A DNA stretch of 64,000 nucleotides from Solirubrobacterales bacterium (GTDB lineage Bacteria > Actinomycetota > Thermoleophilia > Solirubrobacterales > JACPNS01), in assembly GCA_049276635.1 (NCBI GenBank), contig JBASWU010000101.1, positions 6,414-70,413 on the forward strand, given 5' to 3'. The notes under the pieces were generated by a model, which worked only from the letters and a program-made list of their open reading frames with translations, had not been told where the DNA came from and searched no databases. Shown piece by piece: positions 34,891 to 40,921 of this stretch; positions within the stretch are counted from its first letter, which is position 1, and each line of letters begins with the position of its first letter. Both the position numbers and the translations under genes were made by a program.

Positions 34891-36435
<1,545 letters not shown>

Positions 36436-38740
36436 GGGAGACCCTCGGTCCATTCGGACCATAACTACGAGGGCATGGCCAGGCCGACCACTCGTCGCCC
36501 TGGCTTCCTGAATGTCGACTGAATCTGTTCGCGTTGCCAGGCCTTCGGGCCGGAGCACGCATCACGCTGTTGAGTTTTGAGGGACCACTCGACGGTGGCT
36601 TCTCAGCTGCCGGCGAGCGCGTCGCTTGCGGACCTTGAAAACTGCACAGGCCAAGCAATTTATAACGAAAGCGGAAAATTGAACCGAGCAACATCGGTCC
36701 TCGGACCAGTGTTGTTCAGTGTTTTGATCACCGTCAAGATATGAAGGGCATACGGTGGATGCCTTGGCATCTGAAGCCGATGAAGGACGTGGACGGCTGC
36801 GATAAGCCGCGACGAGGCGCTGAACAGCCTTTGACTCGCGGATCTCCGAATGGGTAAACCCAACACCTTTAATCGGGTGTTTGCGTGCACTGAATACATA
36901 GGTGTCACGTAGGTAAGCGAGGGAACTGACACATCTCAGTACCTCGAGGAAAGTAAATCAACCGAGACTCCCTTAGTAGCGGCGAGCGAAAAGGGACCAG
37001 CCTAAACCCGTTGCGTGCAAGCAATCACGCGTTGCGCAGCGGGGGTCGTAGGACACTCATCCCGGTAGTGATTTGCCGGGCGTAAGTTACAAAGCTGCAG
37101 TTAGTGGAAGCTGTTGGAATCCAGCGCCATAGCGGGTGATAGCCCTGTACGCGAAAACTGGCAGCCTTACGCGAGTTGTTCCTGAGTAGGACCGTACACG
37201 TGAAATGCGGTCTGAACCTGGGGGGACCACCCTCCAAGGCTAAGTACTTCCAGATGACCGATAGCGGACTAGTACCGTGAGGGAAAGGTGAAAAGTCCCC
37301 CAGACGGGGAGTGAAATAGTACCTGAAACCGTGTGCCTACAAGCGGTCGGAGCCCCACAGGGGGTGACGGCGTGCTTTTTGCATAACGAGCCGGCGAGTT
37401 ACTCGTCATTGGCAAGGTTAAGTGATGAACGGAGCCGCAGCGAAAGCGAGTCCGAATAGGGCGACTTAGTCAATGGCGGTAGACCCGAAACCGGGCGAGC
37501 TACCCATGGCCAGGCTGAAGCGAGGGTAAGACCTCGTGGAGGGCCGAACCCACCTAGGTTGAAAACTGGGGGGATGAGCTGTGGGTTGGAGTGAAAGGCT
37601 AAACAAGCCCGGAGATATCTGGTTCTCTCCGAAATATATTTAGGTATAGCCTCGGAAAATTGCGTGATGGCCGTAGAGCACTGTTTGGACTAGGGGTCTT
37701 ACCGGATTACCGACTTCAGGCAAACTCCGAAGACCATCACGTTTATTCCGGGAGTCAGTTGCTGGGGGATAAACTTCAGCGTCGAAAGGGAAACAGCCCA
37801 GACCGCCGTCTAAGGTCCCTAAATCATGGTTAAGTGGAAAACGATGTCTGAGTGCACAGACAGCCAGGAGGTTGGCTTAGAGGCAGCCACCCTTTAAAGA
37901 GTGCGTAACAGCTCACTGGTCAAGTGTTCAGGCGCGGATAATTCAACGGGGCTAAAACCATGTACCGAAGACGCGGGTGTGATTGATTTCGATCATTCAC
38001 GCGGTAGGAGAGCGTTCTCAAGCCTTTGAAGCGGCAGGGAAACCTAGTCGTGGAGGCTTGTGAAGTGAGAATGCCGGCATAAGTAACGAAAGGAGGGTGA
38101 GAATCCCTCCCACCGATTGTCCAAGGGTTCCTGAGTAAAGCTCGTCTTCTCAGGGTTAGTCTGGACCTAAGGCGAGGCCGAAAGGCGTAGTCGATGGATA
38201 ACAGGTTGATATTCCTGTACCGCGTCGCAACCGTTTGACCGACGGGGGGACGAGGAAGGCTAGGAGATCCCAGGCGATGGTTGTCCTGGGGTAAGCATGT
38301 AGGGGCGGCACCAGGGAAATCCGGCGCCGCTTAACCCGAGGTGCGATGCCAGCTGGCTCTATAGCCGGCGAGTCTCTGACGCCATGCCTCCAAGAAAATC
38401 CTCTAGGGAGGTCGCACGCGCCAGTACCAAAACCGACACAGGTGGACAAGTAGAAAATACTAAGGTGATCGAGATAACCATCGTTAAGGAACTCGGCAAA
38501 ATCGTCCCGTAACTTCGGGAGAAGGGACGCCCTATTAAGGTGAAACCGTTTACCGGTGGAGCCCGAGGGGGCCGCAGTGAATTGGCCCAACCGACTGTTT
38601 ACCAAAAACACAGCTCTCTGCTAAGCCGCAAGGCGACGTATAGGGGGTGACTCCTGCCCGGTGCTGGAAGGTTACGAGGAGGTGTTAGCGCTTGCGCGAA
38701 GCACTGAATCTAAGCCCCAGTAAACGGCGGCCGTAACTAT

Positions 38741-39283
38741 TGACCACGGTAGTTATAAAACCTGGCTATATGCTGGAACGCCTGTCCTTCAAAAGGTGCT
38801 CCGAGGGTTCGAACGCGAACTCGACGAGGTAAAGGATCTCGCACTACTCGTACGGTCGGTCGAACATCTGTTCGTCCGAAGACAACCGTAAAGTGACAAC
38901 GTGCCGAGTGCAGAAAATCAGCAGGAAAGGCTCTTCATCCGATCGGCAGTCCCGATCGCACGGGGGTACTTTCTGTCAGGTTTCGCGATGAGAGAAGCCG
39001 GCTTCATGACCGTGTGTCGTCCTCGAGGCGATTACGGCGGAAGGTGGAAGCTCTCAGCGAAACCGACTTTGTCACGGTTGTTGACCTTCGCGAGAAGATG
39101 AACAACGGCGACAAGCGAAAGTGCTCTCGGGAGAGAATCCTCAGAGACTATACGCCAGGCTCCGCGGCGCGAAACGCGCCGACGCGAGATGAGATAGTCC
39201 GGTCTCATGGGCGACCATGAGAGTCGAACAGAAATGATTCGACCGCCTGATTCGCATCCGCGCGTCAGGCAGTAACAACAACG
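38741..39283 (+). mobile_element. Group I intron 1 (543 nt, no ORF) after E. coli 23S position U1917 (helix 69 loop)
   Basis: 5' exon ends ...GGCCGUAACUAU and the intron ends ...AACAACG, followed by AACGGUCC. P1: exon UAACUAU pairs with intron GUAGUUA (38749-38755) with a U.G wobble at the splice site. P3 CUGGC (38762) pairs with GCCAG (39154). P element UAUAUGCUGGAA (38767), Q AAUCAGCAGG (38916), R UCAGAGACUAUACGCCAG (39141), S GAGAUAGUCC (39191). Confidence 0.8.
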
Positions 39284-39297
39284 AACGGTCCTAAGGT
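39284..39297 (+). other. 14-nt 23S rRNA micro-exon (E. coli A1918-U1931: AACGGUCCUAAGGU)
   Basis: This is the only copy of this universally conserved H69/H71 segment in the gene. It sits between the two intron-like insertions. Confidence 0.8.
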
Positions 39298-39671
39298 AAT
39301 CAACACGGTTGCCCCTCATCCTGGTGACAGGATGAGTGGAGCTGGCTATATGCTGGAAACTCTGAGTATCCCGCGGTACTCGTTCGCTAGACCTCGGTCC
39401 GGCGAGCAGTGAAAATCCGACGGGTGCAGACAATCAGCAGGAAAGGCTTCAGGCAAGGTATTTGGCGCCTGAAGAATCCTCAGAGACTGTACGCCAGCCA
39501 CCTTTGCGCGCACCGATGGTGCGGGCGGAAGGCGAAGATACAGTCCGTTCTGCGCGGCGACGCGTAGAGGTCGACAGAGATGATCGGCCCGCCTGGATGC
39601 TGGATGAATTGATCCGGCGACCAGGTCCAAACCGCAGGCAGTTCAAAGGAACTGCGGTTAGTAACAGCTAG
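39298..39671 (+). mobile_element. Group I intron 2 (374 nt, no ORF) after E. coli 23S position U1931
   Basis: 5' exon ends ...CCUAAGGU and the intron ends ...CAGCUAG, followed by AGCGAAAUUCC. P2-like hairpin CUCAUCCUG-GUGA-CAGGAUGAG (39315-39336, GNRA loop). P3 CUGGC (39342) pairs with GCCAG (39493). P UAUAUGCUGGAA, Q AAUCAGCAGG (39432), R UCAGAGACUGUACGCCAG (39480), S GAAGAUACAGUCC (39534). I could not draw a convincing P1/IGS by eye. Confidence 0.75.
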
Positions 39672-39713
<42 letters not shown>

Positions 39714-39971
39714 AGTAACGAGTTGGGCGCTGTCTCAACGATGGGCTCGGTGAAATTGCAGTCTCGGTGAAGATGCCGAGTACCCGCGGTAAGACGGAAA
39801 GACCCCGTGAACCTTTACTACACCCTGATATTGGAATATGGAGCATTTTGCTCAGGATAGGTGGGAGTCTTTGAAGCGCCGGCTTTGGCTGGCGTGGAGA
39901 CAACCTTGAGATACCACCCTGAATGTTTTGTGTTTCTAACGGCCGGCCGTGAATCCGGCGGCCGAACAGTG

Positions 39972-40005
<34 letters not shown>

Positions 40006-40160
40006 CAAAATGTAACGGAGGCGCACAAAGGTTCCCTCAGCACGGTCGGAAATCGTGCATAGAGTGCAAACGCATTAAGGGAGCTTGACTGTGAGACTGA
40101 CAAGTCGAGCAGGTACGAAAGTAGGTGTTAGTGATCCGGCGGTAGCAAGTGGAAGCGCCG

Positions 40161-40203
<43 letters not shown>

Positions 40204-40235
40204 GAGCCCAAGAGTTCACATCGACGGCTCGGTTT

Positions 40236-40274
<39 letters not shown>

Positions 40275-40275
40275 T

Positions 40276-40309
<34 letters not shown>

Positions 40310-40310
40310 T

Positions 40311-40358
<48 letters not shown>

Positions 40359-40387
40359 TACCGTGGGCGTTGGAGAATTGAGTGGAG

Positions 40388-40418
<31 letters not shown>

Positions 40419-40477
40419 AGACCTCTGGTGTAGCAGTTGTTCTGCCAAGAGCATCGCTGCTTAGCTACGTCTGGACT

Positions 40478-40510
<33 letters not shown>

Positions 40511-40801
40511 AACCACGAGATGAGTTCTCCCACTCCTTTAAGGAGGTAAGAGTCCTGGCAGACCACCAGGTTGATAGGCCGGGTGTGGAAGTGCGGTAAC
40601 GCATGCAGCACACCGGTACTAATCGCTCGAGGGCTTGACGGATATTTTTCATCCTTCGGGATGATCGATGACCATGATCAAACCCAATTTGACGCCACCT
40701 CGTTCTTGCTTGCGTTCTGTGCAGTTTTGAAGGCCCGCGACGGCGGGTCGTTCGGCACCCAACCCGGCCGAGTGACTCGTGTTCGACGTGTACCCTCACC
40801 A

Positions 40802-40921
40802 GTTTCCGGTGGTTATAGCGTTGGGGAAACACCTCTTCCCATTCCGAACAGAGCAGTTAAGCCCAACAGCGCCGATGGTACTTGTCTCGCAAGGGACCGG
40901 GAGAGTAGGACGCCGCCGGTT
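40802..40921 (+). rRNA. rrf: 5S ribosomal RNA
   Basis: gtttccggtggttatagcg...ccgaac...gcgccgatggtact...gggagagtaggacgccgccgg has the typical high-GC Gram-positive 5S sequence. Helix I closes CCGGUGG/CCGCCGG. Confidence 0.9.

Follow-up and report, generated by a model that had tools for sequence, protein, structure and literature searches.

A group I intron without an open reading frame at position 1931 of an actinobacterial 23S rRNA gene, and its relation to a second intron 14 nucleotides upstream

Two group I introns that stand 14 nt apart in the same 23S rRNA gene raise the question of whether one is a copy of the other, and of whether the downstream one, which an initial annotation had described as a paralogue of its neighbour with an open splicing competence, is still a working ribozyme. 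The window considered here, meaning the whole stretch of DNA that was analysed, comprises 64,000 nt with a G+C content of 65%, and all features discussed lie on its forward strand. Its 23S rRNA gene (36732-40642) is of full length, matching the Rfam model LSU_rRNA_bacteria over model positions 1-2925 with 2748.9 bits, and belongs to an rrn operon together with a 16S rRNA gene (34892-36432) and a 5S rRNA gene (40805-40921), both with full-length Rfam matches. No tRNA genes were found by ARAGORN between 33000 and 43000, so that the two operon spacers (36433-36731 and 40643-40804) are both free of them. Within the 23S rRNA gene the order is GGCCGUAACUAU, intron 1 (38741-39283, 543 nt), AACGGUCCUAAGGU, intron 2 (39298-39671, 374 nt) and AGCGAAAUUCC; the alignment to the Rfam LSU model bridges both gaps, which are counted there as 544 and 378 nt. 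In E. coli numbering the insertions follow U1917 and U1931, both within the H69-H71 region, and the exon sequence that flanks the two sites is that of the Rfam LSU consensus. The exon of 14 nt between them (AACGGUCCUAAGGU, 39284-39297, E. coli 1918-1931) ends with the bases GGU, the exon half of P1 of intron 2. Elsewhere in the gene, domain I carries a lineage-specific expansion of about 50 nt (37031-37085) when set beside the Rfam consensus for bacterial LSU. Among the matches listed, Solirubrobacterales MAG loci with related introns share 87-91% identity with the window in their 23S exons, and assembly GCA_049651765.1 encodes a product that matches one protein of the window exactly; a Thermoleophilia-like actinobacterium is the most likely host.

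The downstream insertion had been taken for a group I intron at L1931, and this proposal is confirmed. The Intron_gpI model (RF00028) aligned with window positions 39288-39567 over model positions 1-253 and gave 62.9 bits, above its gathering cutoff of 50 bits. The insertion lies exactly after U1931, between CCUAAGGU and AGCGAAAUUCC, with the last intron nucleotide, G39671, adjoining AGCGAAAUUCC, and excision of 39298-39671 gives back the consensus 23S sequence. Among the matches listed, 76 of the 96 insertions extracted from the L1931 region end in a G. The identity, boundaries, fold and relationships of intron 2, as well as the absence of an ORF from it, can be regarded as shown. We are highly confident that the insertion at 39298-39671 is a group I intron without an ORF, and that it falls into an L1931 sub-lineage widespread among bacteria and metagenomes, which is characterized by a guide sequence of the form ..YUGCC followed by a P2 with a GNRA cap. 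In position and sequence, it is best regarded as the counterpart of the L1931 introns of Solirubrobacterales/Gaiellales-type (Thermoleophilia) genomes.

The relatives used for comparison were obtained from two scans. A search of a genome collection with the core 16-mer AGAGACTRTACGCCAG returned at least 120 loci, about 100 of which match other parts of the introns by blastn and about 65 of which carry 23S flanking motifs; the genome of the window is not among the loci listed. An exon-IGS-P3/P4 pattern, run against metagenomes, gave at least 120 loci as well. From the listed loci, 42 insertions between L1917 flanks and 96 between L1931 flanks were extracted; since the patterns were taken from the intron itself, this sample is biased towards similar cores. 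The highest summed blastn scores against intron 2 among the matches listed (136-174 bits) belong to nine L1931 introns of about 745 nt (loci L100, L156, L187, L213, L020, L170, L086, L184 and L090). Two further insertions (loci L004 and L110) start with AGCGAAAT(T/G)CCTTGTCGGGTAAT, which places them downstream, around L1949-L1951 rather than at L1931, and thus points to a third nearby intron site in Thermoleophilia MAGs.

Intron 2 displays a complete P1-P9 architecture. The P1 hairpin (39295-39313), seen in the Rfam alignment and by RNAalifold, pairs GGU/AAUC (39295-39301, the slash marking the splice site) with the guide GGUUGCC (39307-39313) across the loop AACAC, and is followed by P2, a hairpin of 9 bp with a GUGA (GNRA) loop at 39315-39336 (CTCATCCTG-GTGA-CAGGATGAG), in which eight of the nine pairs covary. 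This hairpin, called P2-like in the initial annotation, is real and has no counterpart in intron 1. The segment 39341-39356 holds the 5' strand of P3 (GCUGGC, 39341-39346), J3/4 and the 5' strand of P4 (GCUGG, 39352-39356). It leads into an extended P5 domain (39357-39431), composed of P5, P5a and, at the distal end, a hairpin that bears an A-rich bulge; this domain emerges from RNAalifold, the MFE structure and pair counts. The 3' strand of P4 (UCAGC, 39434-39438) and a compact P6/P6a occupy 39434-39480; the P6 pairing already recognized in the annotation is present there, with CUUCAGGC at 39447-39454 opposite GCCUGAAG at 39467-39474 (CTTCAGGC and GCCTGAAG in the DNA). The 5' strand of P7 (GACUGU, 39485-39490) and the 3' strand of P3 (GCCAGC, 39493-39498) come next (39485-39498), then P8 (39498-39533), which exceeds its counterpart in the closest of the relatives listed by about 19 nt, and the 3' strand of P7 (ACAGUC, 39540-39545). 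The remainder of the intron (39549-39671) consists of P9 (39549-39568), with a GCGA loop, three further hairpins, P9a-c, and at the very 3' end the conserved motif AGUAACA (39660-39666), followed by the terminal G39671.

This fold was evaluated on an alignment of ten sequences, namely the window and the nine closest relatives listed, with ORFs trimmed and exon flanks of 8 nt kept. RNAalifold recovered P1, P2, P4, P5/P5a, P6, P7, P8, P9 and the three 3' hairpins; it placed the 5' strand of P3 against the 3' end of the intron, a pseudoknot artefact, and P3 was re-entered by hand and the structure scored again. With the P3 pseudoknot included, the structure comprises 93 pairs, and pairing is kept in 98.1% of cells. 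Changes on both sides of the helix were found in 35 of the 93 pairs, compared with 2-11 in slid controls, and none of 500 shuffles attained that figure; P3, scored as a pseudoknot, contributes one pair with a compensatory change. Folded singly, the window sequence forms the same helices, with an MFE z-score of -7.3. In its row of the alignment, 20 pairs are altered on both sides with respect to the consensus of the relatives while pairing is kept. Nine pairs were flagged as broken in that row; eight of them reflect a shifted register in P6 and P9b, both perfect helices in the MFE structure, and only the ninth, an A·C in P8, is a true mismatch. The ratio of 20 double changes that preserve pairing to a single mismatch is the strongest indication that the fold has remained under selection since the split from the copies that carry an ORF.

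The initial annotation had reported no good internal guide sequence, and had considered splicing an open question for that reason. A guide is, however, present: in the P1 described above, U1931 pairs with G39311 in the U·G pair of the splice site, within a helix that comprises 3 bp with the exon and 4 bp within the intron. Across the alignment of ten sequences, P1 is paired in 96.7% of cells, and its intron part varies in sequence and stays paired by compensatory changes. Two architectures could be distinguished at L1931 among the matches listed. In the first, the guide GCCUUAG forms seven exon pairs and P2 is missing; in the second, to which intron 2 belongs, the guide ..YUGCC is followed by a GNRA-capped P2. 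The 71 unique members of the second architecture (among the matches listed) have exactly three exon pairs in 36 cases and four in 28, with an intron part of P1 of 1-4 bp. A short guide is thus common in the class, and represents a property of the lineage rather than a defect of intron 2, so that the doubt raised about splicing loses much of its ground. P10 of intron 2, with 3 contiguous bp, lies inside the range seen in the class but near its lower limit; the mode of the class is 4-6, and 27 of the 71 members listed have three or fewer. At the position of P2, a GNRA-capped stem of at least 5 bp was found in 71 of the 76 related introns listed, with 63 distinct stem sequences, and the scan pattern set no demand for a hairpin there. 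Some introns of the second architecture possess a long extended P1 hairpin (for example loci L144, L130 and L138).

Recognition of the exon by only 3 bp also occurs in Azoarcus-type introns. The tRNA introns of the Azoarcus/Anabaena type are IC3 introns and offer a mechanistic analogy only; they differ from intron 2 in subgroup, host gene and size, and the likeness would lie in a short P1 with about three exon pairs and in GNRA tetraloop clamps at L2 and L9. The L2 (GUGA) and L9 (GCGA) tetraloops of intron 2 probably make peripheral contacts as in other group I introns.

As far as can be judged from its sequence, intron 2 is likely to splice. In the mechanism that we propose, that of standard group I splicing, P1 (GGU/AAUC with GGUUGCC) would present the U1931·G wobble, and an exogenous guanosine bound at P7 would attack after U1931. 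G39671 would then take the guanosine-binding site, and the 14-nt exon would be joined to AGCGAAAUUCC, which would restore the canonical H69-H71 sequence. That the intron is instead dead for splicing, and either kept in the mature 23S rRNA or the mark of a non-functional rrn copy, seems unlikely to us. Three observations speak for it: P1 has just 3 bp with the exon and P10 is weak, the intron lacks an endonuclease that would maintain the element, and there is a precedent in the L1931 intron of Simkania, which is reported as unspliced in the passage of PMC11270868 that cites Everett (1999), in agreement with what the annotation had stated. They are, however, set against 23S, 16S and 5S rRNA genes that are all of full length with high Rfam scores, canonical exon sequence at both junctions, and core helices that are all intact, with the 20 lineage-specific compensatory double changes against one mismatch. 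The short P1 is normal for the intron class (36 of the 71 listed members) and a ribosome could, judging from its structure, hardly accommodate two large insertions that stay unspliced so near the H69 loop (within 14 nt).

Two special forms of function were also considered, and we hold it quite unlikely that either applies: that the two ribozymes are functionally coupled, or that intron 2 is retained in the 23S rRNA with its fold kept so as to be tolerated on the ribosome surface. The first idea comes from the arrangement itself. The 14-nt segment serves intron 1 as its 3' exon and intron 2 as its 5' exon, and its share in P1 of intron 2 is just 3 bp, so that splicing might have to proceed in a fixed order.

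Intron 1 (38741-39283, after U1917) forms a P1 in which AACUAU/UG pairs with CGGUAGUU; it has no P2, and its P5 and P6 regions are enlarged. Its match to RF00028 (21.1 bits, E=0.009) lies under the gathering cutoff, which can be ascribed to the large P5 (137 nt) and P6 (206 nt) regions, given that those of the orthologues measure about 70 nt each; automatic annotation would consequently overlook this intron. The closest relatives of intron 1 among the matches listed are the L1917 introns of four Solirubrobacteraceae-type loci (L005, L090, L107 and L147).

The near-identical blocks reported to be common to both introns do exist, and all five are collinear: CTGGCTATATGCTGGAA at 38762 in intron 1 and 39342 in intron 2, AATCAGCAGGAAAGGCT at 38916 and 39432, GAATCCTCAGAGACT at 39135 and 39474, TACGCCAG at 39151 and 39490, and AGTAACA at 39271 and 39660. 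Three of the exact collinear blocks measure 16-17 nt, while the longest chance match in mononucleotide shuffles had a mean of 8.7; one shuffle reached 15 nt, which makes this a weak control, and we relied instead on the recurrence of the blocks in homologues. The same blocks occur in about 130 independent introns among the matches listed, and most of the introns listed for L1917 and L1931, which come from many phyla, contain them with 0-3 mismatches; the terminal motif UAAC(A/G) is found in 38 of the 42 L1917 introns listed. The annotation was likewise right about P7, where GACTAT/ATAGTC in intron 1 (39146 and 39194) corresponds to GACTGT/ACAGTC in intron 2 (39485 and 39540), a genuine compensatory pair in which A-U becomes G-C on both strands. 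The fifth P7 pair is A-U in most of the introns and G-C in 4 of 40 at L1917 and 11 of 85 at L1931 (among the matches listed). The change is thus best read as a recurrent polymorphism of the family, and no mark of a duplication at this locus.

The description of intron 2 as a paralogue of its neighbour, taken in a local sense, did not withstand the comparison of 148 core columns that could be aligned well. With L1931 orthologues from Solirubrobacterales/Gaiellales-type genomes and metagenomes, intron 2 has an identity of 0.84-0.87, as against 0.75-0.81 with the L1917 introns of other genomes and 0.755 with intron 1; the latter has 0.78-0.86 with its own L1917 orthologues. The alignments were anchored on the blocks, given that pairwise MAFFT misaligned the 5' halves owing to the P5 and P6 insertions of intron 1. 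In blastn, the two window introns match each other with 87 bits, which ranks about 24th among the matches listed when intron 1 is the query. Only two sites are shared uniquely by the two introns of the window, and none by those of two control genomes (L090 and L170); recent paralogy is rejected, since intron 1 is not the nearest relative and the uniquely shared sites are so few, and gene conversion between the adjacent introns is rejected on the same count of two sites in 148 core columns.

A duplication or ectopic transposition of intron 1 in this genome or its recent ancestors, with the P7 change arising after the duplication, is thus very unlikely. It would account for the three exact blocks of 16-17 nt and for the similar overall architecture; a rough NJ tree brings actinobacterial L1917 and L1931 introns near one another, and both families have P9, P9a and terminal motifs in common, as well as related endonucleases with the same C-terminus. 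Nevertheless, the identity between the two introns is no higher than that of intron 2 with L1917 introns of other genomes, the uniquely shared sites number just two, P1 with its IGS, P2, P8 and the P9 stems of intron 2 follow the L1931 lineage, and the shared blocks and both states of P7 are encountered at both sites across phyla. The segment-wise NJ tree is noisy in the variable helices and was used as a lead only, and the 148-column comparison is the basis on which paralogy was rejected. On these comparisons, the resemblance of the blocks reflects a conservation of the core throughout the family rather than local paralogy, and intron 1 would belong to a separate, site-specific sister lineage at L1917. 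It is plausible that the L1917 and L1931 families descend from one remote ancestor, which would not be particular to this locus. Finally, the possibility that the insertion is no intron at all, but an intervening sequence of the RNase III type or some other element with a fortuitous likeness to group I introns, can practically be dismissed. Short intervening sequences are frequent in bacterial 23S rRNA genes (PMC11270868), but the insertion scores above the RF00028 gathering cutoff and has a full covarying P1-P9 architecture, U·G and a terminal G at its boundaries, and homologues with endonucleases at the same site.

With intron 2 placed in the L1931 lineage, its shortness can be compared with the ORF-bearing relatives. 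The nine closest relatives listed have in P6 an insert of 433-441 nt with a single-motif LAGLIDADG gene, whose product matches Pfam LAGLIDADG_1 with E=6.8e-18, and in intron 2 only 29 nt separate the flanking blocks. A tblastn search of intron 2 revealed no endonuclease remnant beyond short peptides that overlap the core, and its longest plus-strand ORF, of 69 aa, overlaps the core too. Members of the class without an ORF are common among the matches listed, eight of them measuring 248-313 nt (loci L132, L154, L212, L139, L152, L171, L027 and L119). In some introns of the second architecture the ORF is located in P8 rather than P6 (loci L076 and L104). We infer that the ORF of intron 2 was lost rather than never gained; the relatives are only about 85% alike in the core and far less in the periphery, so that loss by descent and horizontal gain of an ORF-less copy are inseparable.

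The state of intron 1 is a different one. Its P6 contains a degenerate LAGLIDADG endonuclease remnant (38946-39160), recognized by tblastn, which is frameshifted and has lost about 70 aa from its interior. With the L1917 endonuclease of locus L200 as the query, frame +2 yielded a match to aa 3-46 at 43% identity and frame +1 a match to aa 118-153 at 56% identity, and the motif GFALGEGSF has become GFAMREAGF; the intact relative of this remnant matches Pfam LAGLIDADG_1. Loci L090 and L170 show the opposite states, with a short intron at L1917 and an ORF in the one at L1931, a reversal with respect to the window that is the pattern expected of independent cycles of endonuclease decay. In ORF-bearing relatives the core sequence GAATCCTCAGAGACTRTACGCCAG doubles as the C-terminus of the endonuclease, ILRD(Y/C)TP. 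This doubly used J6/7-P7-P3' block is located at 39134-39158 in intron 1 and 39473-39497 in intron 2, and its coding role explains in part why the core is so strongly conserved; for the same reason, the switch of P7 between A-U and G-C is also a switch between Tyr and Cys.

Group I introns at L1931 have been described in bacterial, archaeal and organellar LSU genes, as those of Thermotoga spp., Simkania negevensis, Synechococcus C9/C1 and green-algal organelles. They are assigned to the GISSD subtype IB4 (Nawrocki et al., 2018, PMC6125680), and have also been called IC1-like (Haugen et al., 2007, PMC1995217). P2-less organellar introns are typically IC2, IA1 or IB4, and the cyanobacterial L1917 and L1931 introns are without P2 (Haugen et al., PMC1995217). 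The absence of P2 that is tied to IB4 is not what we found in intron 2, whose P2 of 9 bp is conserved and covarying. Intron 2 resembles the known L1931 introns in the position after U1931, the core motifs, a complex P5, a GNRA L9 and P6 as the place of the LAGLIDADG ORF in relatives. It differs from them in that it has no endonuclease gene, and in that its guide pairs with three exon nucleotides, whereas that of the P2-less L1931 introns (GCCUUAG) pairs with seven. Compared with the published bacterial examples, intron 2 is set apart by its P2, its 3-bp guide and the lack of an endonuclease, features that are common to many environmental relatives. The P2-bearing, short-guide L1931 introns may constitute a structural subclass of the IB4-type introns that is formally undescribed.

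The tandem arrangement also has precedents. In Synechococcus sp. C9 the LSU gene is interrupted by introns at three sites, L1917, L1931 and L2593 (PMC1995217), and thus unites, like the window, members of the same two intron families in one gene; its ORFs run from P6 into the P7/P3 core (PMC1995217), which matches the ILRD(Y/C)TP overlap seen here. However, the Synechococcus introns all have full-length endonuclease genes, whereas the window has a mere remnant in intron 1 and no such gene in intron 2, and the host of the window is an actinobacterium without an L2593 intron. In the archaeal contig KP308720.1, introns LSU/1923 and LSU/1931 are 8 nt apart (Nawrocki et al., 2018, PMC6125680), and in CPR bacteria LAGLIDADG_1-encoding insertions are known at positions 1917, 1931 and 1952, with 1917 and 1931 being abundant (PMC11270868). 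Those tandems resemble the window in the packing of several group I introns, with and without LAGLIDADG genes, into H69-H71, and differ from it in host phylum and in that intron 2 of the window belongs to the P2-bearing L1931 sub-lineage. In our scans, tandem L1917 and L1931 introns were found in at least eight further genome loci (L002, L007, L056, L083, L090, L095, L107 and L108) and in at least 26 of about 95 assessable metagenome loci; L090 and L170 both show the pair. Such tandems are thus common in environmental data, and already published.

The locus leaves known group I intron biology unchanged. For annotation, it implies that both insertions need to be removed to obtain the mature 23S sequence. 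It adds a Thermoleophilia-like actinobacterial case to the bacteria in which more than one group I intron interrupts a 23S rRNA gene, and it shows the homing cycle at two stages in adjacent introns, with the LAGLIDADG gene decaying in one and absent from the other, whose fold is still maintained.
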